Shown: one piece after another, positions 34,532 through 51,223 of the stretch
Layout of the letters: each line of letters begins with the position of its first letter
Numbering within the stretch: position 1 is the stretch's first letter
Source of the DNA: Vicinamibacteria bacterium
GTDB lineage: Bacteria > Acidobacteriota > Vicinamibacteria > Marinacidobacterales > Marinacidobacteraceae
Assembly: GCA_964291235.2 (NCBI GenBank)
Contig: OZ219816.1
Coordinates: 608,001-672,000, forward strand
Length of the DNA stretch: 64,000 nucleotides
Direction of reading: 5' to 3'
The notes under the pieces: model-generated
What the model was told of the DNA's origin: nothing
Database searches by the model: none
The model's input: only the letters and a program-made list of their open reading frames with translations
Program-made: the position numbers and the translations under genes

Positions 34532-36949
34532 CTAGTGGTTGTTCGGCCGCCGGCTTCCGCTCGAACCGCTGCCGCTTCGGCTGACGGCGGTGCTACCGCC
34601 GCCGCTACCACCGCCGCCGCCGCCGCTGGCCCGGCTTCCGCCACCGCCGCCGCTGGCCCGGCTTCCGCCACCGCCGCCGCTGCCGCTCACCGCGGTGCCG
34701 CCGCCACCGCCGCCACCGCCGCGGCTCATGCCGCTGCGGCTACCGCCGTTCCGCGTGCTCCCCGCAAAGCGCGAGAACCCACCGGGACGGCCTCCCCGGG
34801 AGGCGCCGCTCGGGCGCGTGCGGGACGTCGCGCTGGGCCGGCTGCGGGAGCCCGCGTTCGGTCGGCTTCGGGAAGCGCCGCTGGGCCGGCTCCGGCTGGC
34901 CCCGCTCGGGCGGCTGCGACTGGCGCCGCTACTAGGCTGGCTTCGGGAAGCGCCGCTGGGCCGGCTCCGACTGGCCCCGCTCGGGCGGCTGCGGCTGGCG
35001 CCGCTACTGGGCTGGCTTCGGGAAGCGCCGCTGGGCCGGCTCCGGCTGGCCCCGCTCGGCCGGCTTCGGCTGGCTCCGCTACTGGGCTGGCTGCGGGAGG
35101 CGCCGCTGGGCCGGCTCCGGCTAGCTCCATTCGGCCGGCTGCGGGTAGCGCCGCTGGGCCGGCTGCGTGGAGTTCCAGACCGTCCTGCCGCGGCAGCGCC
35201 GCTCCGTGGAGATGAGGGGCGGACCGTTGACGGCCTTCGCGCTCCCGTGGTCCCCGTCCGTCCGGAAGCCCGTGGCCGGGGGGATGTCGCCGGCCGGTTT
35301 CCGGTCGTGGGGCGGCCGCCGCGGGCGGCCTCGGGGCGTCCGCCCCGGCGGGTGGAGGTGGCGGCGTCGGCGGTCCCGCTACCCCGAGCGGCGGCTCGGG
35401 ACCGGCCTGACTCCGTGCCCGCGGAACTCTCGCGCGGTCCGACCGCTCCGCGGGACAGGACCGCCCGGTCCCTTTCCGCCGCGGCCGCCGACCGCGTGCT
35501 GCGGGCTCGCGCTGCGTTCGAAGGAACGGCGACGCGCTGCCCGCGGAGGGTGCTGCGGGCCGCGCCCGCCGTGGAGCGGCCCGCAGCGGATGCTGCCCGG
35601 GAGGCGGCGACCCGCGAATTCGAGAGTCGTCGGTTCGTGGCCTTGGCGGAGCGGGTCATCGCGGTAACCCCCACCGCGCGCTGCCGGAATCCCCGGTCGA
35701 GGACGGCTCCCTGGGACAACACCCGGGCCTCTTGCAGGTTCGTCAGACTGGAGGCGGACAGGCGGTTGCGGGAGGCCGGACGGCCAACGGCCTCCCGGCT
35801 GGTGAAACTCCACGATCCCCGATCGCCCACGGACCCGCGGGGAACTGCCTTGCCCCGAATCTGCCCCCGGCGAGGGACGTTGCCCCCCCAGCCGCGGCCG
35901 TCGTAGTCCCCACGGCTGTAGTAATCCCAGCCGTAAACGGGATAGCCCCAGTAGTTCAACGGGGACCACCCGACCCAGTTGGGGCCGTAGCTCCAGGAAA
36001 CCCAGGCCGGACTCCAGACCGACCCCGGAAGCCAGTACCAGCCGAGGGGTCCGTGACCCCAGCGGCCGTAGTGATAGGGGGCCCATCCCCAGGAGTCGTA
36101 GGAGATCCAGGTCAAACCGAAGGGCGTGTGCGACCACCGCCCCAGCCGGTAAGGCGCCCAGTCGGCGGCGACGGCCGGATACCAGAGCCAGCCCAGATGG
36201 ACATCGTGGTGCCAGCGACCGTGTTGCGCCAGATCGGGGGCGTACTCCTGCACTTCCTCGGGCAGTTCGTCGTAGTGCGTTTCGGCGCTGGTGACGAACC
36301 GCTGCCGGCGGCCTTCGGTCCATGCCAGAAAACTGTCGTTGCCCAGGAACTCCTCCGGCGACGCCGGGGCGGCGCCCTCGGAAGCGATGGTCCGCTGACC
36401 GGACCCCACGAGCACCGAGCCCCACTCGGTGGAGACCGTTGCAATCCCCGAGTACACGACGAATTGGACGGTGCGGCCATCCTCGAGCAGATCGGTGCGG
36501 TACTCACCCTCTCCCTGTGGGGAGAAGGTGCCGCCAGGCGTTTCCACGACCACTTCCGCATCGCCCGCCATCCAGACGATCAGACTTCCGGTCCAGAACC
36601 CGAGACGGTGCGGGCTGTCGCCTTCCACGTAGTCCAACTTGGTCGCCTGGTCCATCCAGGCGGTGACCCGTCCCGCAAAGCGCAACTCGACCTGGCCGGG
36701 TTCGCGGGTCCAGATGCGGTCGCCCGGAAGGAAGGGGCTGCCGCGCTCCGCCTCGTGCGCGCCGAAATCGTCCGCCCGCTGGTGCCAGACGTCGCCGTCC
36801 ACCACGCTGAGATTCCCGTAGGCGTAGGAACGCCCGGTCTCCTCGTCGGCCTGCCCGAGCGCTGCCGGCGCTTGGCCCAGGACCAGAAACAGACTCAGAA
36901 TGCCTGCGTGCCCCAGGGTCTGATTACGCATGTTGGGTCTTTTGTGCAT
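34532..36949 (-). CDS. Secreted FecR-like / DUF6600-like Trp-rich protein with Arg/Ser/Gly low-complexity tail
   Basis: Signal peptide, GDRIWT FecR-like region, WAPYRLGRW...WGWAPYHYGRW...WSPAWVSW...VGWSPL, repetitive C-terminus. Confidence 0.82.
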   Translation of the reverse strand: MHKRPNMRNQTLGHAGILSLFLVLGQAPAALGQADEETGRSYAYGNLSVVDGDVWHQRADDFGAHEAERGSPFLPGDRIWTREPGQVELRFAGRVTAWMDQATKLDYVEGDSPHRLGFWTGSLIVWMAGDAEVVVETPGGTFSPQGEGEYRTDLLEDGRTVQFVVYSGIATVSTEWGSVLVGSGQRTIASEGAAPASPEEFLGNDSFLAWTEGRRQRFVTSAETHYDELPEEVQEYAPDLAQHGRWHHDVHLGWLWYPAVAADWAPYRLGRWSHTPFGLTWISYDSWGWAPYHYGRWGHGPLGWYWLPGSVWSPAWVSWSYGPNWVGWSPLNYWGYPVYGWDYYSRGDYDGRGWGGNVPRRGQIRGKAVPRGSVGDRGSWSFTSREAVGRPASRNRLSASSLTNLQEARVLSQGAVLDRGFRQRAVGVTAMTRSAKATNRRLSNSRVAASRAASAAGRSTAGAARSTLRGQRVAVPSNAARARSTRSAAAAERDRAVLSRGAVGPRESSAGTESGRSRAAARGSGTADAATSTRRGGRPEAARGGRPTTGNRPATSPRPRASGRTGTTGARRPSTVRPSSPRSGAAAAGRSGTPRSRPSGATRSRPNGASRSRPSGASRSQPSSGASRSRPSGASRSRPSGASRSQPSSGASRSRPSGASRSRPSGASRSQPSSGASRSRPSGASRSRPSGASRSRPNAGSRSRPSATSRTRPSGASRGGRPGGFSRFAGSTRNGGSRSGMSRGGGGGGGGTAVSGSGGGGGSRASGGGGGSRASGGGGGGSGGGSTAVSRSGSGSSGSRRPNNH
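34864..35165 (-). repeat. Intragenic tandem repeat, 75-bp period x ~4, built from 24+24+27-bp subunits (SRSRPSGA / SRSQPSSGA)
   Basis: GGCT(T/G)CGGGA(A/G)GCGCCGCTGGGCCGGCTCC recurs at 34864, 34939, 35014, 35089. Confidence 0.9.
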
Positions 36950-37615: not shown

Positions 37616-38596
37616 TCAGGCGCTCCGGCGCCGGGTGATGCGGGTCAGTTCGGGAGGTTCGTTGGTGATCTGCAGGGTATGGGTCTCGATGCCGTTCGGG
37701 CCGAACCGCACCCCCCGGACGAGGGCTCCGTCGGTCACCCCGGCGGCGCAGAAGATGAGGTTCCGGCCGGGCGCCAATTCGGCGGTGGTGAGTATGCGAC
37801 CTGGATCCTCGACACCGGTCTCGCGGAGCCGCTGCTGCTCCGCTTCGTTGCGTACCAGCAGCTGCCCCAGCATCCCGCCGCCCAGGCACCGCAGGGCCGC
37901 CGCGGCAATCACTCCCTCCGGAGCGCCGCCCGAGCCCATGGCCGCGTGAACTCCCGATCCCGGCATCGCGCTCAGGATGCCGGCCGAGAGGTCGCCGTCT
38001 CCGATGAGGCGTACGCGGGCGCCGGCGCGCCGCAGCCCGGCAATCAACTCGGCGTGCCGAGGGCGCTCGAGCACGACGACAGTGATCTCGCTCGCCGGAC
38101 GGCCCTCGGCCTCGGCGATCGCGCGAACGTTCTGCTCGGGGGAGTGATCGAGCCGGATCTCGTCACCGAGGAGGCTGCGACTGGCTGCTCCCACCATGAT
38201 CTTCTCCATGTAAACGTCGGGCGCGGTGAGCAATCCCCCGCGTTCCGAACCGGCCAGCACCGCGATGGCGCCGGGGCCTCCCGTGGCGCACAGGTTGGTA
38301 CCTTCGAGAGGGTCCACCGCGATGTCCAGCGTGGGGCTTGCCTCCCCGCCGTCGCCGAACTCTTCGCCGCTCCACAGCATGGGAGCCTGGTCGCGTTCGC
38401 CCTCCCCGATCACGACCCGCCCGCGGACCGGAACCCTGTCCAGAACCCGGCGCATGGCGGAAACCGCGACCTGATCGGAGTGGTGCCGGTCTCCCTGGCC
38501 GATCGTGCGGGCGCAGGAGATCGCTGCTTCCTCGACCGTTTGGACGAGGTGGGAGCTTACGGCCGCCAGCGGACGGTCGAACGCCGTCCCGCTCAA
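37616..38596 (-). CDS. glpX: Class II fructose-1,6-bisphosphatase
   Basis: VVIGEGERDQAPML, DIAVDPLEGT, APDVYMEK, LERPRH, DGD, GGAPEGV, GVTDG; TTG overlaps the upstream stop. Confidence 0.95.
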   Translation of the reverse strand: MSGTAFDRPLAAVSSHLVQTVEEAAISCARTIGQGDRHHSDQVAVSAMRRVLDRVPVRGRVVIGEGERDQAPMLWSGEEFGDGGEASPTLDIAVDPLEGTNLCATGGPGAIAVLAGSERGGLLTAPDVYMEKIMVGAASRSLLGDEIRLDHSPEQNVRAIAEAEGRPASEITVVVLERPRHAELIAGLRRAGARVRLIGDGDLSAGILSAMPGSGVHAAMGSGGAPEGVIAAAALRCLGGGMLGQLLVRNEAEQQRLRETGVEDPGRILTTAELAPGRNLIFCAAGVTDGALVRGVRFGPNGIETHTLQITNEPPELTRITRRRSA

Positions 38597-39807
38597 CGCT
38601 CTTCCGGCGCCGGGAGCGTGACGCGCGTGGGGCGATCCTGCCGGTACCCCAGGGCGTAGTCGGCCTGCATGAGGGTGTGGATTTCGCGAGTTCCCTCGTA
38701 GATGACGGCGCCCTTGGAGTTCCTCCAGAAGCGTCCCACCGGATACTCGTCGGAGTAACCGTAGGAGCCGTGGATCTGGATGGCGTCCGAAGCCGCCCGT
38801 TCCGAGGCGACCGTGGACACCCACTTGGCGAGGGAAGTCTCGCGGGTGTTGCGGCGCCCGCGATTCTTCAGCTCTCCCGCACGGAGCCACAGGAGCCGGC
38901 TGATCTCGTAGTCCCGCTCCATGTTTGCGATCATCTGCTTGACCAGTTGGTGCCGGCCAATCTCCTGACCGAAGGTCGTTCGGGCGCGCGCCCACCGCAC
39001 GCTCTCGTCCCGGCAGGCGCGGATGAGTCCGGTGGCGCCGGCGGCGACCGTGTAGCGGCCCTGATCCAGGGCGAACATCGCGATCTTGAAGCCTTCGCCC
39101 TCTTCCCCGAGCCGGTTCTCTGCCGGAACGCGAACCTCGTGCATTCGGAACCAGCCCGTGTTGCCGGCGCGGATTCCCCATTTGTGGGTCATGTTTCCCG
39201 ACTCGAAGCCCGGGAAGGAGCGCTCCACGATGAAGGCCGAGAGTCCCGAATGATCCCTCCGGGCGCGTTTGTCCGGGTCTGTCCAGGCGATCACCAGGAA
39301 GTTGTCGGCAATCTCCGCCAGGGAGATCCAGTGTTTTTCGCCTGTCAGCACGTAGTCGGCCCCATCGCGCCGGGCCGTGGCTCGAATGCCGACCGCGTCG
39401 CTGCCGGCGTCGGGCTCGGTAAGCCCGTAGGTGGCGATCTCCTTCCCCTCGGCCTGCGGCCGCAGGTAGCGCTCCTTGTGGAACTCGGTGCCCCACGCCA
39501 GCAGCGAGAGGGAATTCAAACCTGCATGGACGGACATGATGACCCGCAGCGAGGTGTCCACGTACTCGAGTTCCTCGCAGGCCAACCCCAGGGAGATGTA
39601 ATCGAGTCCGGCGCCCCCGTGGCGCTCGGGCACACAGATCCCCAGGATGCCGAGCTCGCCCAGTCCCTTGAGAACGTCGCGATCGAAAACCTTGGCCGCG
39701 TCGTTGTCGCGGATATGCGGCGATACCTCGCGGGTGGCGAATTCGCGAACCAGCGATTCCGTCGCGCGGTGTTCCTCGTTCAGATCAAAGTTCAGACTGT
39801 CAGCCAA
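38593..39807 (-). CDS. Acyl-CoA dehydrogenase family protein
   Basis: LTEPDAGSD, GEKHWIS, GEEGEGF, LDQGR, RTTFG, QIHGSYGY, IYEGT. Confidence 0.93.
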   Translation of the reverse strand: MADSLNFDLNEEHRATESLVREFATREVSPHIRDNDAAKVFDRDVLKGLGELGILGICVPERHGGAGLDYISLGLACEELEYVDTSLRVIMSVHAGLNSLSLLAWGTEFHKERYLRPQAEGKEIATYGLTEPDAGSDAVGIRATARRDGADYVLTGEKHWISLAEIADNFLVIAWTDPDKRARRDHSGLSAFIVERSFPGFESGNMTHKWGIRAGNTGWFRMHEVRVPAENRLGEEGEGFKIAMFALDQGRYTVAAGATGLIRACRDESVRWARARTTFGQEIGRHQLVKQMIANMERDYEISRLLWLRAGELKNRGRRNTRETSLAKWVSTVASERAASDAIQIHGSYGYSDEYPVGRFWRNSKGAVIYEGTREIHTLMQADYALGYRQDRPTRVTLPAPEER

Positions 39808-40081
39808 GATTCCTGTTGCCTTTCCCGGTCCGATCGAGCAACCCACCAACGCGCGAACCGGTTTTCGAGTGGCGGTCCGTCCCGGCCGGCTCACGACGCT
39901 CCCGGTGGCGACCTGGTCGCCCGGTGTGCCCCCGGATGGCGCCTGACCCGCCCGGCGGGTTGCCGGTCCTGATGCTCGCCCTTTCGTTGTCCACGGATTG
40001 CCGGCCACTTCCGGCCGCGGTGCGGAGGGGCGGAGTATATGGGTGATTTGCGACTCGCCGGCCTGTCGGGGGCCGGCGCGG

Positions 40082-41695
40082 TCAGATCCCGCCGGCGAGC
40101 GCGGCGGCGGCCGCCTCGGCCTCCGCCTTGCGTTTGCTGGGGCCCACCCCTCTTCCCAGCGCGCGGCGCCCCGCGAGCACCTCCATGACGTAGGTCTTGT
40201 CGTGTTCGGGACCGCTCTCCGAGATGAGCCGGTACACCGGAAGCCGGCCCTCTTTCTTCACGAGCGTCTCCTGGAGAGCGCCCTTCGGGTTCTCCGTGGC
40301 GTCGGTCGCCGGCGCGGTCTTGTCGCGCGCTTCTGGTTCGGCGCCGGAGGGCGGGGCTCGCCTGGCTCCCCTCCGGCTCCTGGCGGACTGTTGCTCGAGG
40401 CGCGCGAGCGCTTGGCGCGCCGCATCTTTCTCGGCTTCCTTCAGGCCGCGGCCGGTGCCCGTTTCGACCAGTCCGCCCGCCAGCCGCAGGGTCACCGACA
40501 CCGCACCCTCGCCCCGCGAGTTCCGTCCGCCGCGCTTCACGTCGTACCGTGGCGCCTCTTTACCGGCCTGCGCCAGGCGGTTTTGGAGAAGTGTCTTGGG
40601 GTCCAGGAGTTCCAGGTCGGGATCCTCGAGTTCCTCGAGGGCCGCCCGGAACGGCCGGCCCAGGGCACGCCGTGCGGCTCCCAGGCCGCCGTCGAGGTAG
40701 AGCGCCCCCATCACGGCTTCCGCGGTCGCGGCGCTGTCGTCATCGTTCCCCAGGGACCAGTGCTGGCTCAGCACCTGCGTGAATTCCCGGCTCTGCAGCC
40801 GCATCCTGGCGAGCGTCATCCGTCCTTCGTCCCAGTCGGGGAAATGGTTGTGGAGCGCCTCGGCGAGCATGAGATGCATGACGTCGCGCCCGAGAAAGCG
40901 CAGCGCCGGCCGGTTGGCAGTCCGGGCCGACCGGTCATGCCCCGGCGATCGCGGCCCCGGGCCCCGTCGTCCCCGGCCCCCCCGTTGCCGGCCGCGCCGC
41001 GGTCCCGAGGAGCGTTCCCCGTCGCTCTTCTCGAGCGCCACCGCCAGGATTGCCGGATCGGCGAAGGTGTATCCCAGTGCTCGTTCGACGTCCTTCCGAA
41101 GCAACAGCAGACGACGGGTGAAACGGACACCGAGCGGACCCACGGCTCGTAGCCCGGTTCCCAGGCGACGGCCCCATCCCGGAACGCCTTCGAGCGGCTC
41201 CAGCCGGAATCGCTTGAGTTTCCTCGCAAAAGCTGCTCCCAGGATCCCCCGCGCCGCCGGCATGCCGCCGTCGAGATAGGCGGCCCCGAGGACTGCTTCG
41301 AAGACGTTCGCCAGGATGCGGTCGGAAGACCGGACTTCTTCTCCGGAATTCCGGCCGCGTCCAACCCGGATGCCCTCGTCCAGTGAAAGAGTTCGCGCCG
41401 CCGCCGCCAGCGACTGGTTGCTGACCAGCTCGGACTTGGTCTCCTGACGCCTCTGGCCGTCCCAGTGCGGCCGCTGCCGGTGCACGGACTCGGTGACGAC
41501 GAGTCCGAGTGCCGCGTCCCCGACAAACTCCAGTCGTTCGTAGTCCGCCACCGCGTGGTCGTTGCGATACGAGCCATGCGTCAGGGCTTCCTGGAGCAGC
41601 TCGATGTTCCGGAATCGGTACCCGAGTCCGCGGGCAAACTCCACGACCGGGCGATGGTTGGAGGCCGATGTGCGCCGGCGTCGTCGTCTGGCCAT
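40082..41695 (-). CDS. rnc: Ribonuclease III, atypical tandem architecture (RIII, degenerate RIII, two dsRBDs)
   Basis: Domain 1: LGYRF...ALTHGS, ERLEFVGDAAL, FEAVLGAAYLD. Domain 2: LGYTF, LRFLGRDVM, EGRMT, AEAVMGALYLD. dsRBDs: DPKTLLQ...KEAEKDAA and NPKGALQE...GPEHDK...SKRKAE. Confidence 0.85.
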   Translation of the reverse strand: MARRRRRRTSASNHRPVVEFARGLGYRFRNIELLQEALTHGSYRNDHAVADYERLEFVGDAALGLVVTESVHRQRPHWDGQRRQETKSELVSNQSLAAAARTLSLDEGIRVGRGRNSGEEVRSSDRILANVFEAVLGAAYLDGGMPAARGILGAAFARKLKRFRLEPLEGVPGWGRRLGTGLRAVGPLGVRFTRRLLLLRKDVERALGYTFADPAILAVALEKSDGERSSGPRRGRQRGGRGRRGPGPRSPGHDRSARTANRPALRFLGRDVMHLMLAEALHNHFPDWDEGRMTLARMRLQSREFTQVLSQHWSLGNDDDSAATAEAVMGALYLDGGLGAARRALGRPFRAALEELEDPDLELLDPKTLLQNRLAQAGKEAPRYDVKRGGRNSRGEGAVSVTLRLAGGLVETGTGRGLKEAEKDAARQALARLEQQSARSRRGARRAPPSGAEPEARDKTAPATDATENPKGALQETLVKKEGRLPVYRLISESGPEHDKTYVMEVLAGRRALGRGVGPSKRKAEAEAAAAALAGGI

Positions 41696-41696
41696 C

Positions 41697-43898
41697 TCAG
41701 TCCACCCGCACCAGGACCATCGTCAGGTCATCGGTGTACGTCTCGGAGCCCGTGAACTCCAGGACCGCGTTTTCGACCCTCCGCTGCAGATCTGCCGGCG
41801 GCAGGGCCGCCCCCTCCTCAAGGAGCCGCATCAGTCTTTCCTCCCCAAACATGTCGGACTCGGAGTTCATCGCTTCGGAGACGCCGTCCGTAAAAAAGAG
41901 CCAGGTTTCCCCGCGGTTGAGACGCTCGGAGCGCTCTTCGAGGATTTCGTCGAAGACCGGTCCGGGATCCAGGGCCAACCCGAGCCCGGCGGGAACCAGC
42001 GCTTCCGAGCGAGGCCAGTCCCCGTCCCGCCGGATCAGGTGAAGGAGCGGGCTGTGGCCCGCCCGCGCGAAAGTTACCCGACCTGCCGCGGAGTCGAACA
42101 CCGCGTAGGTGATGGTGATGAAGGTGCGGGCATCGAGTGCGTTGTGAAGCACCCGGTTGGCCTCCACCAGAACCTTGCGGGGAGATTCGTGGATTCGGCT
42201 CAGGGCGAGCATCAGGCCCTTGAGTTCCGCCATGATGAACGCCGCCCGGGTCCCGGTCCCGGAGACGTCCGCGATCACGACCCCGAGCCGATTCGGCCCC
42301 AGCGGGATCAGGTCGTAGTAGTCGCCCCCGACCTCGGTTGCCGGCCGGCAGACGGCGGCGAGGGCGAATCCCGGCACGAGGACGGATCCCTCGGGAGGGA
42401 GAAGGCGCGCCTGCGACTGCCGCGCCGTTTCCATCTCCTGCTCGAGCACCGCCGCGCGCCGCAGACGTCCCATGTCGTCGGCAATCTTGGCGGTCATGAT
42501 GTTGAAGGAACTGGCGAGCTCTCCGAGCTGGTCGGGGGACGCGGCGTGCACCTGATGGCCGAAATTTCCGCTGCGAACCAGGTCCGTTCCCTGGCTCAGC
42601 GCCTCGACCGATCGGGTGATCGAGCGCGCCAGCCGGAGCCCGGCGGCGAACGCGACACCCTCGATGAGCAAGAAGACGACGGCCAGGGCGCCGAGGACGA
42701 GCAGCAAACCGCTGCGCCAATCCTGGTTGCTGATGGCCACGGACTCCGAGAGCCCGCTCGTGGTCCCCTGGATCAGGTGGATCGGGGCGAAGCCGATCGC
42801 CACCATGACCGTGCCTCCCTCCATGTCGGGTCCCCAGGGAACGGCCTCGAGCAACAGCGGCTCGTCCCAGTCGATGGTGAAGCGGTCGCTTTCGGCCCCC
42901 GGGAAACGCAGTGGCGCCGGCGGGTTCTCGCTCTCGTCGCCGAGGTAGAGCGCCCAGACGGTGCGAACGATCAGATCTTCCTCCCGGGCGCTTTGCTCGA
43001 GGAGCGGCGCGAGCGGAGACAGCACCAGCGCGAGGCGATCCCCGCCCGGGGCCGGGACCAGGGCGCCGAACCAATCGTCGTCCTCCATCTGCACCACGCC
43101 CTCGTAGGGGCCGAGCGCCCACTCCGGGACCGGATCGGACTCCCGGATGGGGCCGCCGTCACCGGAACCCGTCAGCTGGACGATGCGGCCCTCCTCGACT
43201 TCGAGAAGCCAGGCCGCCGCGCCCGGAGCGAAAGGAGTGACCCGGGCGACGGCCTCCTCGAGTCCGCGAGCGATTTCCGGCGGAGCGGATCCTGGTGGAA
43301 TCTCCAGGAGGGTTTGCCTGGCGGCGGAAGCGAATGCCATGCCCCGGGCCCCCAGGTTCGTCTGGAAGGCGTAGGACCCGTAGAGCCCCAACACCACGTA
43401 GAAGGCGAGCAGGAAGAACGCACTGAGCAGCAGGACGGGTAACAGCCCCACGAAGAGATAGGAGACCGCCAACTTCCGGCGCACCGGATAGAGCAGCCAC
43501 TGAAGCAGGTCGCGCCCGAAGTACACGACGACCGCCCCCAGCGTGATGGCGAAGACCGTCCAGGCGTCGGCCGTCCAGGAGCGGGGCAGGGCGCCCGCCG
43601 AGGACAGCGAGGCGACGGCTCCGACACCGAGCAGGAATCGACCGGGCCAGGAGCGGGCCAGCGCCCGTGCCGCGCGCTCGAGGCCCTTGAGGAGCGAGCC
43701 GGAGTGCGCCGGCGTCGCCGGGGAGGAGGCGGGAGGGGAGGCCGGCGTGGCCGGACGTCCCGTGGGCTGCGTTGAGTCTTGGGTTGAGATGTTCTGGTGT
43801 GCGGGTGTTTCAGGAAGGGCAGTTGGCCGGATTGCCGAATCCGGGCCGTTCCCCGTGAGCTCCGGTTCGGCGCTTTTCGGCGGGGTACGCGCTCTCAC
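41697..43898 (-). CDS. Membrane HAMP plus PP2C/SpoIIE (RsbU-like) serine phosphatase
   Basis: TM segments, HAMP (ITRSVEAL...DQLGELASSFNIM), VGGDYYD, IADVSG, RAGH, TDGVSE, DDLT. Start uncertain. Confidence 0.9.
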   Translation of the reverse strand: MRARTPPKSAEPELTGNGPDSAIRPTALPETPAHQNISTQDSTQPTGRPATPASPPASSPATPAHSGSLLKGLERAARALARSWPGRFLLGVGAVASLSSAGALPRSWTADAWTVFAITLGAVVVYFGRDLLQWLLYPVRRKLAVSYLFVGLLPVLLLSAFFLLAFYVVLGLYGSYAFQTNLGARGMAFASAARQTLLEIPPGSAPPEIARGLEEAVARVTPFAPGAAAWLLEVEEGRIVQLTGSGDGGPIRESDPVPEWALGPYEGVVQMEDDDWFGALVPAPGGDRLALVLSPLAPLLEQSAREEDLIVRTVWALYLGDESENPPAPLRFPGAESDRFTIDWDEPLLLEAVPWGPDMEGGTVMVAIGFAPIHLIQGTTSGLSESVAISNQDWRSGLLLVLGALAVVFLLIEGVAFAAGLRLARSITRSVEALSQGTDLVRSGNFGHQVHAASPDQLGELASSFNIMTAKIADDMGRLRRAAVLEQEMETARQSQARLLPPEGSVLVPGFALAAVCRPATEVGGDYYDLIPLGPNRLGVVIADVSGTGTRAAFIMAELKGLMLALSRIHESPRKVLVEANRVLHNALDARTFITITYAVFDSAAGRVTFARAGHSPLLHLIRRDGDWPRSEALVPAGLGLALDPGPVFDEILEERSERLNRGETWLFFTDGVSEAMNSESDMFGEERLMRLLEEGAALPPADLQRRVENAVLEFTGSETYTDDLTMVLVRVD

Positions 43899-48754: not shown

Positions 48755-49918
48755 CTATCGGCCGATGGCAGCAGCCAGCGTTGCTGCGCGGTCGGTGCTC
48801 TCCCAGGGAAAACCCGGGCCCTCGTGCCCGAAATGGCCGCCTTTCGCGGTGTTTTCGTAGATCGGCCGGCGCAGTTGAAAGTGGGCGATGATTTCTTTCG
48901 GGGTCAGACCGAAGACATCCCGCACCGCACGCTCGATCTCCCCATCGTCAGTCCTTCCGGTCCCGAACGTGTCCACCCGGACCGAGACCGGCTCCGCGCG
49001 CCCGATCGCGTACGCGATCTGTACTTCGGCCCGGCGCGCGAGGCCCCCCGCGACCACGTTTTTCGCGATGTAGCGCGCCATGTAGGCGGCCGAACGATCC
49101 ACCTTCGTCGGATCCTTCCCCGAAAAAGCGCCGCCGCCGTGGCGGGCCATCCCGCCGTAGGTGTCAACGATAATCTTCCGGCCCGTGAGTCCGCAGTCGG
49201 CCGCCGGGCCACCCTCCACGAACTTTCCGGTCGGGTTGACGAGCACTGCCGGTGATCCGACGCGAAACTCTTCCGGCAGTACGGGGAGCACCACCCCTTC
49301 CTCGATGTCGCGAACCACGCGGTCGAGAGCCTGCTCCTCGTGCTGGGAGGAAGCCACGACCGTGGGAACGGCAACAGGATTGCCGGTTGGGTCGTAAGCC
49401 ACGGTGACCTGCGCCTTCCCGTCCGGCCCCAGATACGGGATGTCGCCGTTTCTCCGCGCTTCGGTGAGCCGCCCCGTAATACGGTGGGCCAGCATGATGG
49501 GAAGCGGCATGAGCTCCGGCGTTTCATCGCACGCGAAGCCGAACATCATCCCCTGGTCTCCGGCGCCTCCGGTATCCACACCCATCGCGATGTCCGCCGT
49601 CTGGCGGCCCATGTGGATCTGGACGTCCACCGTGTCGGCGTCGAAGTCGTCGTCCCGGCCGGTGTACCCGATGCGGCGGATCGTTCGCCGGACCACCGCC
49701 TCGAGTTCGCCCCGGGTCGGGCCTCCCCGCGCCGTCGCTTCTCCGGCGATCACCGCGCGACCCGCGGTGACGAGGGTTTCGCAGGCGACCCGGGCCAGGG
49801 GATCCCGGCTCAGGAAGGTGTCGAGAACGGCGTCAGAGACCTGGTCCGCGACCTTGTCGGGATGGCCTTCGGTTACTGACTCGGAAGTAAAGAGCCGCAC
49901 GTCGCGGTCGGTTTGCAC
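48755..49918 (-). CDS. metK: S-adenosylmethionine synthetase
   Basis: [49 protein letters not shown]. Confidence 0.97.
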
Positions 49919-50015
49919 GCTTGCAGAACACCTTCCTCGTCTTGGGTTCGTTGACCGGATGGGGGGGAGACGACCATCACCAATCGTCTCGGGAGCCGTC
50001 GCTGGGCGGCGCGCG

Positions 50016-50024
50016 ATGATAGCA
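50016..50024 (-). promoter_or_regulatory. Putative extended -10 promoter for metK
   Basis: TGCTATCAT on the minus strand about 100 bp upstream of the GTG. Confidence 0.35.
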
Positions 50025-50089
50025 GTCCGGATGCCACCCGAAGCCGCGCCGACAGGCGCACGGGCGGCGTCCGTGGCGGTGGTGAACCA

Positions 50090-51223
50090 GTGACGCCAGC
50101 CCCGCCCCGGCCCACTGCGGTCATCCTGCTTGCGGGGAAGTCGCAGCGGACCTGGCCACTCACCGCCGACTTCCCGAAACCGTTGTTGCCGCTTTGGGGA
50201 AGACCCCTCACGGAGCGGGTACTCGACCAGTTGCACGGGCTGGTGGACACCGCAGTGCTGGTGGTCGGATACCGGAAGGAGCGGATCCTCGAGCACTTCG
50301 GCAAGAGCTACCGCGGGATCCGCCTGGTGCCCGTCGAGCAGGAGAGCGCCCGTGGCACCGCGGATGCGCTGCGGGTTGCCGCCACTGTGGTCGCGGGTCC
50401 GGTGCTGGCCTTGAACGGCGATGACTTCTACCACCATGAAGACCTCGCACGGGTGAGCGAGCACCCGACCGCCATCCTTTGCAAGGAGGCCAGTGACCCC
50501 TGGAACCGGGCGACCGTCACCGTGACCGACGGCGACTGGCTGGTGGACATGGAGGAAAAGCCGCCGGAGGCGAAACCGTGGGAGTTGAGCAGTGTGGGCG
50601 CCTACTCGTTGTCGCGGCGGGATCTGGACCATCTCGGCGAAGTCCAGGAGAGCGTGCGCGGCGAACTTGAATTGCCCGATCTCATTCGGATCCTGGCGCG
50701 TTCCCCGGGGGTGCGCGCCGTACGGGCCCGCCGTCCCTGGATTCCGCTCACCTATCCGTGGGACATCATCGGCCGCATCGTGCCGCTCTTCGGAGGTGAC
50801 CCGCCCGGAGAGGGCGCGCGCGCCCTCGGGTTCGAAACCGCCACCGGCGCGATGGGAGAGGGGGCGGTCTTTCTTGGAGAGGGCGCGTCGGTCCACCCGG
50901 ATGCCCGGTTGCGGGGGCCGGTTGAGCTCGGCCCCGGAGCCCGGATCGGGGCCGGGGCGGTCGTCGAACGGGCGGTCCTGATGGAAGGGGCGCGGGTCGG
51001 GCCGGAGGCGATTGTCCGGGACAGCGTGCTCGGACGCGGGGCCTTGGTGGGAGCTGGGGCCCGATTGCTCTCGGGGCCGGTCGAGCGGATCGAAGTGCTG
51101 GGGCACACCGCTCGGGTGGGGGTACCCGTCGTGGGGGCCTGCCTGGGGGCGAATGCGAGCGTTGTCGGCGGGGCGGAGCTGCCTCCGGGCACCCTGTTGG
51201 GTCCGGACGAGCGTTTCCGGTAG
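50090..51223 (+). CDS. Sugar-1-phosphate nucleotidyltransferase with left-handed beta-helix (GlmU-like)
   Basis: [42 protein letters not shown], hexapeptide repeats. Confidence 0.82.

Follow-up and report, generated by a model that had tools for sequence, protein, structure and literature searches.

Passages of a 2021 review place all bacterial RNase III enzymes in class 1, with a single RNase III domain (RIIID) per monomer, and reserve chains with two RIIIDs for Drosha and Dicer (PMC8708148), while passages of a 2022 paper treat pairs of a catalytic and a non-catalytic RNase III as so far unique to the editing complexes of kinetoplastids and report that the KREN/KREPB pairs of trypanosomes are believed to restrict cutting to the mRNA strand (PMC9508840). 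RNase III heterodimers engineered to have one functional site are active and nick double-stranded RNA (dsRNA), as summarised in part of a further article (PMC3867540). Here we describe an rnc gene that encodes two RIIIDs (RIII-1 and RIII-2) and two dsRNA-binding domains (dsRBD1 and dsRBD2) in one bacterial chain, and that replaces the usual two-subunit RNase III across one family of uncultured marine-type Acidobacteria. The gene lies in the window, a stretch of 64,000 nucleotides (positions 608,001 to 672,000 of contig OZ219816.1, assembly GCA_964291235.2) from a Vicinamibacteria bacterium; nucleotide coordinates below are those of the window. Our full-text literature searches, whose coverage leaves out most subscription journals, returned no description of a bacterial tandem-RIIID RNase III.

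A minus-strand open reading frame (ORF) at 40082..41695, with ATG as its start codon, encodes 537 amino acids (aa) and ends in a stop codon. Its parts are listed here, with model confidence given as the predicted local distance difference test score (pLDDT):

40082..41695, minus strand: whole tandem RNase III coding sequence; TIGR02191 match of 247.6 bits, with full-length orthologues in 27/27 other family genomes
41654..41695, minus strand: N-terminal basic tail, aa 1-14 (MARRRRRR...); 36% Arg+Lys, 0-19 aa long in the family, pLDDT <50
41201..41653, minus strand: RIII-1, aa 15-165, catalytically complete by its residues (E53, E56, D60, N130, E133; ball residue F57); assigned by Pfam, residue alignment and the match to 3o2r_A
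41111..41200, minus strand: linker between the two RIIIDs, aa 166-195; 22-30 aa long in the family, two predicted helices
41030..41110, minus strand: N-terminal helices of RIII-2, aa 196-222, from the structure models
40913..41029, minus strand: disordered Gly/Arg-rich insertion within RIII-2, aa 223-261; pLDDT <50 in both models; across the family, 17-72 aa in length with 33% Arg+Lys
40622..40912, minus strand: RIII-2 core, aa 262-358; RNase III fold (7r97_B, Z 16.7), with R266, R270 and A323 in place of acids and with E326 and ball residue F267 kept
40388..40612, minus strand: dsRBD1, aa 362-436, divergent; about 10 aa past RIII-2, modelled where Drosha and Dicer have their C-terminal dsRBD
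40301..40387, minus strand: disordered linker rich in Arg, aa 437-465; family range 17-135 aa, with a third dsRBD here in some members
40085..40300, minus strand: dsRBD2, aa 466-537, of canonical type; counterpart of the dsRBD in the ordinary rnc of the sister families

Domain scans with Pfam (run on the whole protein and on four segments) and TIGR02191 bear out the RIII-RIII-dsRBD-dsRBD order of the 537-aa protein that a first-pass annotation had read from the DNA. The features it had singled out are also present: ERLEFVGD (aa 53-60) and ANVFEA (aa 129-134) in RIII-1, PALRFLGRD (aa 263-271) in RIII-2, where Arg stands for both signature acids in 28/28 family members, and a Gly/Arg-rich insertion in RIII-2, which we locate at aa 223-261. 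The whole protein scores above the curated cutoffs of PF14622 (121.6 bits, cutoff 35), PF00636 (99.8, cutoff 27) and TIGR02191 (247.6, cutoff 166.25). Among the segments, RIII-1 (aa 30-153) matches PF14622 with 97.3 bits and PF00636 with 70.9 bits, and RIII-2 (aa ~264-317) matches PF00636 with 35.0 bits against the 27-bit cutoff (E 2.5e-8), this match spanning profile positions 2-53 of 102 only. Pfam covers RIII-2 in two pieces because of the loss of about 14 residues from a loop, which we estimated from the sequences to be ~14 aa shorter than its counterpart in RIII-1. Searched against the genome, TIGR02191 matches the rnc frame three times, with model positions 3-143 on RIII-1, 30-219 on RIII-2 and dsRBD1 (72.7 bits, E 2e-20) and 146-216 on dsRBD2. 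The Pfam dsrm model assigns 34.5 bits to dsRBD1 (aa 366-433) and 56.1 bits to dsRBD2 (aa 470-534). A GPxH loop and a KRKAE helix, which we take to be typical of RNA-binding dsRBDs, are kept in dsRBD2, and dsRBD1 keeps the presumed RNA-binding helix motif without the loop motif. Pfam gave no match to a PAZ, helicase or platform domain, a Pro/RS-rich region or a zinc finger in the whole protein.

The two RIIIDs differ sharply in their catalytic residues. The RIIIDs of the 28 family members were aligned with those of 156 ordinary enzymes, 21 from the phylum and 135 representatives from other bacteria, and catalytic positions carry their E. coli numbers (E38, E41, D45, D114, E117):

E38: RIII-1 E53 (28/28); RIII-2 variable; ordinary domains E in 128 and Q in 28 of 156
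E41: RIII-1 E56 (28/28); RIII-2 R266 (28/28); ordinary domains E in 156/156
Ball Phe: RIII-1 F57 (28/28); RIII-2 F267 (28/28); ordinary domains F in 148/156
Gly: RIII-1 G59 (28/28); RIII-2 G269 (28/28); ordinary domains G in 156/156
D45: RIII-1 D60 (28/28); RIII-2 R270 (28/28); ordinary domains D in 156/156
D114: RIII-1 N130 (28/28); RIII-2 Ala, Gly, Pro or Ser; ordinary domains N in 14/21 phylum rnc and 26/135 representatives
E117: RIII-1 E133 (28/28); RIII-2 E326 (28/28); ordinary domains E in 154/156

Residue E117 of E. coli corresponds to E110 of the Aquifex enzyme, according to a passage of the Nicholson review. Arg at both signature acid positions is thus found in 28/28 RIII-2 domains versus 0/156 ordinary ones, and the signature and metal-binding acids that define the RNase III family are present in RIII-1 and missing from RIII-2, which keeps E326 alone. 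We considered N130 (codon at 41306-41308) as a possible defect of RIII-1 and rejected this, Asn being common at the position in ordinary rnc; two further phylum genes of the 21 (loci L008-L018 and L028-L037) have Cys there. The fourth metal-site acid therefore appears far less fixed than the other three. Judged by its residues, RIII-1 is a normal, catalytically complete domain, and RIII-2 would certainly be unable to bind the catalytic metals in the usual way and so be non-catalytic.

The dead domain has nevertheless been maintained. Mean pairwise identity within the family is 0.72 for RIII-1, 0.65 for the RIII-2 core, 0.62 for dsRBD1 and 0.70 for dsRBD2, versus 0.18-0.33 for the linkers, and 28 of the 97 columns of the RIII-2 core are invariant. 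This pattern points to purifying selection on all four domains, and to an RIII-2 that appears to be kept without sign of decay.

That the second region adopts an RIII fold at all is well supported by prediction. Modelled alone (aa 171-365, from a 20-row alignment), RIII-2 has a core pLDDT of 88-96 and, when compared with 48,161 PDB representatives without a prefilter, finds its best match in E. coli RNase III (7r97_B; Z 16.7, root-mean-square deviation (rmsd) 2.4 A, 139 aligned residues), with RIIIDb of human Dicer close to it (2eb1_A; Z 16.3, rmsd 2.9 A, 139 aligned). Ranks 1-30 are mostly RNase III-domain or RNase III-like chains, after which Z drops from 8.8 to 5.8. RIII-1 superposes on 3o2r_A with Z 21.3 and rmsd 1.7 A over 143 residues, single RIIIDs generally aligning over ~143-149 residues.

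The AlphaFold2 (AF2) model of the whole chain (mean pLDDT 78.8, predicted template modelling score 0.62) resembles the eukaryotic two-RIIID enzymes: the best 30 chains found by Foldseek are all Drosha or Dicer. In VIA-align, model residues 16-434 superpose on residues 875-1333 of Drosha 5b16_A (Z 27.6, rmsd 9.1 A, 363 aligned), and the model superposes on Dicer 7zpi_A with Z 27.3 (rmsd 5.8 A, 354 aligned). Taking the two RIIIDs alone, the fits are to Dicer-2 7w0a_A (Z 24.8, rmsd 4.2 A, 294 aligned, model residues 4-365), Giardia Dicer 2ffl_A (Z 21.0, rmsd 4.4 A, 297 aligned) and Drosha 6lxe_A (Z 20.9, rmsd 4.8 A, 294 aligned). The model thus depicts the intrachain dimer of Drosha and Dicer, with dsRBD1 predicted where their C-terminal dsRBD sits.

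A two-chain prediction of RIII-1 (aa 14-170) against RIII-2 (aa 171-365) gave a median interaction prediction score from aligned errors (ipSAE) of 0.88 over three runs versus 0.00 for the best of three controls; the mark used is reached by 116/157 solved complexes and by 2/215 mismatched pairs, and a pass may stem partly from likeness to solved complexes and is no proof that these domains bind. The runs share at least 88% of contacts, with a partner pLDDT of at least 72, and the predicted interface is the canonical dimer surface, on which signature helices 53-69 and 263-282 face each other and F57 touches residues 278, 281 and 282. The whole-chain model and the two-chain test, which follow up the first-pass suggestion of an intramolecular pseudo-dimer, therefore pair RIII-1 and RIII-2 at the same canonical surface. 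Interface residues fall in columns conserved at 90% or more in 14/22 cases for RIII-2 versus 29/104 elsewhere in the domain (one-sided Fisher p 0.002), and in 18/22 cases for RIII-1 versus 55/129 elsewhere (p 0.0006). Conservation of the RIII-2 interface is better explained by docking, because catalysis is lost there.

We further examined how widely the architecture occurs. Among 5.8 billion protein clusters, close homologues form 73 clusters (P0002-P0074; 49-98% identity), 70 of which are at least 480 aa long and 3 of which are fragments; the next matches are ordinary RNase III proteins of ~296 aa covering 23-25% of the query. In a library clustered at 50% identity the family reduces to two full-length representatives plus fragments. 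Twenty public records carry the tandem gene under the names MAG Candidatus Marinacidobacterium sp. (4), Vicinamibacteria bacterium (6), Acidobacteria bacterium (8) and Acidobacteriota bacterium (2), and the NCBI taxonomy places Candidatus Marinacidobacterium in Acidobacteriota, class Vicinamibacteria.

A phylum-wide search gave a match in 383/400 other genomes; it used a stricter first pass, and the 17 genomes without a match include incomplete ones. The 149 matches listed besides the window's own cover the RIII-1 region alone (query ~2-170) at 33-49% identity, and the best E-value is 2.6e-28, with none near the level of a full-length orthologue in any genome. At the level of the order (55 genomes), the full-length tandem gene with no second locus is present in 27/27 other genomes of the same family-rank group (seven genera, several genomes being single-contig), while the two sister families have an ordinary rnc of ~250 aa only, in 7/8 genomes (the miss being 73% complete) and 19/19. 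Four unpublished genomes are counted here, G024, G152 and G049 in the phylum tallies and G403 among the sister families; each has ordinary-type matches only, and no conclusion hangs on them alone. In the source genome (3.45 Mb, 2 contigs, 90% complete) we found no other TIGR02191 or PF00636 locus, so that the canonical rnc for which the first-pass annotation had left room elsewhere in the genome is absent from this assembly and the tandem gene is the sole RNase III in 28/28 family genomes.

The gene order around rnc indicates where the tandem gene came from. The order valyl-tRNA synthetase, HAMP-PP2C phosphatase, rnc, acyl-CoA dehydrogenase, (glpX), DUF6600 is kept in 5/5 other family genomes sampled, from five genera, and in 5/6 sister-family loci the orthologous PP2C gene is immediately followed by an ordinary rnc. 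The RIIID of the sister-family rnc aligns to query aa ~17-157, that is, to RIII-1, and its dsRBD, in those alignments that include a second piece, to aa 462-534 (dsRBD2) at 46-48% identity. Because of the shared syntenic position and this alignment, we conclude that the tandem gene is an in-place descendant of an ordinary rnc, the ancestral RIIID corresponding to RIII-1 and the ancestral dsRBD to dsRBD2; the outer domains are conservative counterparts of the ancestral enzyme and the inner domains divergent. The first-pass view that the domain order is not a simple head-to-tail duplication agrees with ordinary rnc aligning to the two outer domains.

Maximum-likelihood trees of 110 RIIIDs and 107 dsRBDs, with a background of 25 of the 135 ordinary-length representatives (drawn at random) and the 21 phylum genes, give RIII-2 a stem of 1.80 versus 0.98 for RIII-1. 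They place dsRBD1 in a separate long-branched clade (stem 0.9), and dsRBD2 nests among ordinary rnc dsRBDs. RIII-2 and dsRBD1 are sister neither to RIII-1 and dsRBD2, respectively, nor to any sampled group, and the inner pair could have arisen by internal duplication, by nested insertion of an rnc copy or by two partial tandem duplications that copied the RIIID and the dsRBD separately. Three proteins of one genus (P0052, P0054 and P0055; 657-674 aa, genomes G415 and G416) have a third dsRBD, resembling dsRBD2, in the linker before dsRBD2, and the same genus has a much longer Arg/Gly insertion in RIII-2. Because these proteins carry an extra dsRBD copy before dsRBD2, the route by two partial duplications is plausible, and domain duplication appears to be still under way in the tandem gene.

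The neighbour upstream of rnc is the following:

41697..43898, minus strand: HAMP + SpoIIE/PP2C phosphatase gene; adjacency to rnc conserved across the order

This gene, for a membrane protein of 733 aa, stops (TGA) one base before the rnc ATG (41693-41699), and no promoter-like or terminator-like site was found on the rnc strand at the junction; the two genes are likely to be co-transcribed. No RNA data set is listed for 39900-42100. The adjacency is order-wide and older than the tandem architecture, because the ordinary rnc of the sister families also holds it. Downstream of rnc, the conserved block of the five other family genomes sampled includes the counterpart of the ORF at 34532-36949 (minus strand, 805 aa, DUF6600 domain). 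The ORF at 37616-39496 (minus strand, 626 aa) has a glpX-type fructose-1,6-bisphosphatase domain at aa 314-614, and that at 48755-51106 (minus strand, 783 aa) has SAM synthetase domains at aa 405-769; both start ~300-400 codons ahead of their domains and are most likely over-extended frames in DNA of ~69% G+C.

Taken together, we consider it fairly probable that the protein acts as a pseudo-dimer joined covalently in one chain, with a single catalytic centre and one strand cut per binding event. With its two RIIIDs and two dsRBDs, the chain holds the domain complement of an ordinary homodimer. An ordinary rnc would have gained a second RIIID and a second dsRBD in place, within the same reading frame, and RIII-2 would dock on RIII-1 through the canonical ball-and-socket dimer surface to form one dsRNA-binding valley. 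Metal-binding acids would then be present in the RIII-1 half of this valley only, and RIII-1 would cut one strand; R266 and R270, at the former metal sites, probably hold backbone phosphates of the uncut strand, which the conserved TLARMR helix of RIII-2 may also hold. Affinity for RNA would come from dsRBD2, dsRBD1, the Arg-rich tail, the Gly/Arg insertion and the Arg-rich linker. Each binding event would yield one cut, and thus either a nick or, through two independent events in opposite orientations, a double cut. The pairing of RIII-1 with RIII-2 in this scheme is a predicted one, and we infer that the protein is monomeric, cleaves a single strand and uses its arginines in this way. The housekeeping work of RNase III could still be done by a one-site enzyme, because separation of 16S and 23S ribosomal RNA (rRNA) would need only a single cut in one strand of a stalk.

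We regard it as possible, more tentatively, that the enzyme is a natural bacterial dsRNA nickase, a monomer whose dead half would clamp one strand by two Arg and whose live half would cut the other. If so, the family would process rRNA stalks and antisense or small RNA (sRNA)-mRNA duplexes strand-selectively, for example with the target destroyed and the regulator spared, and bacteria would have independently invented both the intrachain dimer of Drosha and Dicer and the active/dead pairing of trypanosomes.

Several points weigh against the covalent pseudo-dimer. The structure predictions could echo remembered dimers of RNase III, Drosha and Dicer, and because RIII-1 is present just once in a prediction of the monomer, such a model cannot tell whether it would choose RIII-2 or the RIII-1 of another chain (RIII-1'). 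The alignments are shallow and drawn from one family (28 and 20 rows), and the RIII-1 interface overlaps the catalytic signature motif, so that its conservation adds no separate evidence. The stalks of rRNA processing are normally cut on both strands by RNase III, a coupling that a lineage with a one-site enzyme only would have to do without. Nor does this reading explain why RIII-2 keeps an invariant E326, which corresponds to the most critical of the catalytic Glu residues.

Conservation of the RIII-2 dimer surface is a further such point, being equally expected if RIII-2 pairs with the RIII-2 of another chain (RIII-2'), and it bears on the strongest alternative, a dimer of tandem chains, which we think unlikely but deserving of serious attention. 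Here RIII-1:RIII-1' would cut both strands, and RIII-2, alone or with RIII-2', would form with dsRBD1 a non-catalytic module for dsRNA binding or substrate selection. In RIII-1 the ordinary dimer surface is intact and ball residue F57 is kept, the ordinary bacterial enzyme is described as a homodimer in passages of two articles (PMC8708148, PMC3867540), and coupled double cuts by the sole RNase III would call for no change in rRNA processing. Yet one chain already has exactly the domain complement of the homodimer, the linker between the RIIIDs is short and constrained in length (22-30 aa), both predictions place RIII-1 against RIII-2 at the canonical surface, and Drosha and Dicer, the known two-RIIID enzymes, pair their domains within one chain in solved structures; none of these points is a direct test.

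We consider it improbable that RIII-2 is a regulated pseudo-subunit that caps the dimer surface of RIII-1 and has to be displaced, perhaps by way of the HAMP-PP2C phosphatase, for RIII-1:RIII-1' to form. The predicted position of RIII-2 on that surface would suit such a role, as would the phosphatase gene ending one base ahead of rnc and adjoining it in 5/5 other family genomes sampled and 5/6 sister-family loci; this adjacency is, however, shared by the ordinary sister-family rnc and therefore older than, and not specific to, RIII-2, and two invariant Arg at the former metal sites suggest contact with RNA rather than plain capping. Evidence of a kinase or phospho-site did not turn up, though no search was aimed at it. 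Still less credible is a non-catalytic RNA-binding protein or RNA chaperone in which, as in maize RNC1, both RIIIDs are inactive: RNC1 provides a precedent for two RIIIDs without catalysis, according to part of a review (PMC8708148), and RIII-2 is, on its residues, certainly non-catalytic, but RIII-1 retains all universally conserved catalytic residues in 28/28 members and belongs to the sole RNase III of 28/28 family genomes. An assembly chimera, or two genes fused through sequencing error, can be set aside almost entirely, given the same uninterrupted frame in 27/27 other family genomes, several of them single-contig, the 70/73 close-homologue clusters of at least 480 aa, the 20 named public records and the apparent purifying selection on all four domains.

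Single-chain RNase III of other kinds also occurs among bacterial-type proteins from metagenomes. P0090, P0098, P0200, P0240-P0244 and P0275 (~437-444 aa) have the order RIII-RIII-dsRBD, the first RIIID keeping (E/R)RLEFLGD and the second being degenerate (e.g., ARLKFLGHS, GRLAFLGDA); the P0200 type is represented by only ~8 clusters, among them a 377-aa partial protein and another with just 32% identity. We tried and rejected kinship of these proteins with the tandem family, since the two RIIIDs of the P0090/P0098/P0200 type group with each other in the tree (Shimodaira-Hasegawa-like approximate likelihood ratio test (SH-aLRT) 95), apart from RIII-1 and RIII-2, so that their duplication was a separate event. 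Of two further metagenome or NCBI proteins, P0084 (480 aa) is a plain head-to-tail RIII-dsRBD-RIII-dsRBD protein with ERLEFLGD in both halves, and P0088 (605 aa) has three RNase III domain matches and is cut at its end. Single-chain bacterial RNase III is thus rare but recurrent, and, were the nickase reading true, would have at least three separate bacterial origins, counting the RIII-RIII-dsRBD and RIII-dsRBD-RIII-dsRBD types.

Existing classifications, as given in part of the 2021 review, allow bacteria only class 1 RNase III, a symmetric homodimer with one RIIID per chain, and make two-RIIID chains a eukaryotic feature (PMC8708148), and catalytic/non-catalytic RIIID pairs are treated as a kinetoplastid peculiarity in passages of the 2022 paper (PMC9508840). 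Against this background, a lineage of family rank (seven genera, 28/28 genomes) has swapped its housekeeping rnc for what would be a covalent, asymmetric version. The tandem enzyme would offer a natural, small and probably soluble model of the change from symmetric homodimer to intrachain pseudo-dimer, a transition through which Drosha and Dicer are assumed to have arisen. The lineage would likewise offer a test of life with a one-site RNase III only, with its effects on rRNA maturation and antisense control, and a candidate strand-selective dsRNA nickase would be a possible reagent.

Compared with class 1 Rnc (E. coli, Aquifex aeolicus, Thermotoga maritima), the tandem protein shares the ordinary domains, RIII-1 and dsRBD2, and its gene occupies the syntenic position of ordinary rnc as the sole RNase III of the genome; it differs in the dead RIIID and the second dsRBD added between these two domains, giving 537 aa with two RIIIDs and two dsRBDs in place of ~220-260 aa with one of each. 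The single-chain metagenomic proteins of the P0090/P0098/P0200 and P0084 types are equally of bacterial type and known from metagenomes only, and the second RIIID of the P0200 type is also degenerate, but they have one dsRBD or an alternating domain order and stem from independent duplication. With Drosha and Dicer (classes 3 and 4) the protein shares two RIIIDs followed by a dsRBD in one chain, and the model superposes across RIIIDa, RIIIDb and the dsRBD. In contrast, both RIIIDs of those enzymes cut, whereas RIII-2 has Arg at both signature acids (28/28); their PAZ, helicase, platform and Pro/RS-rich regions were not found by Pfam in the tandem protein, which has an extra dsRBD; and the tandem gene is of bacterial, independent origin, as an in-place orthologue of the acidobacterial rnc. 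Maize chloroplast RNC1 also has two RIIIDs in one chain with catalysis lost, as described in part of the review (PMC8708148), but there both domains are inactive, whereas RIII-1 is catalytically complete by its residues.

The engineered E. coli heterodimers (Conrad et al. 2002; Meng and Nicholson 2008, as cited in part of PMC3867540) embody the same logic of one functional site, but are artificial point mutants of a homodimer, where the tandem protein is a natural, covalent and long-diverged pair. In the trypanosome RNA editing catalytic complexes (RECC), KREN1-3 and KREPB6-8 likewise pair a catalytic with a non-catalytic RIIID, the single site being thought to cut one strand (passages of PMC9508840 and PMC3867540), a pairing that is predicted for the tandem protein; the RECC1 chain 9dei_D superposes on RIII-2 with Z 10.1 and rmsd 3.0 A over 116 residues. 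These are, however, two polypeptides with zinc fingers in a large mitochondrial complex, whereas the tandem protein is one bacterial chain with two dsRBDs. A live and a dead cutting domain side by side were previously known only from eukaryotic Drosha/Dicer and trypanosome editing enzymes. The tandem protein is thus a member of the RNase III family that fits neither the architecture of class 1 nor the two active sites and accessory domains of classes 3 and 4, and by analogy would work most like a covalent KREN/KREPB pair.

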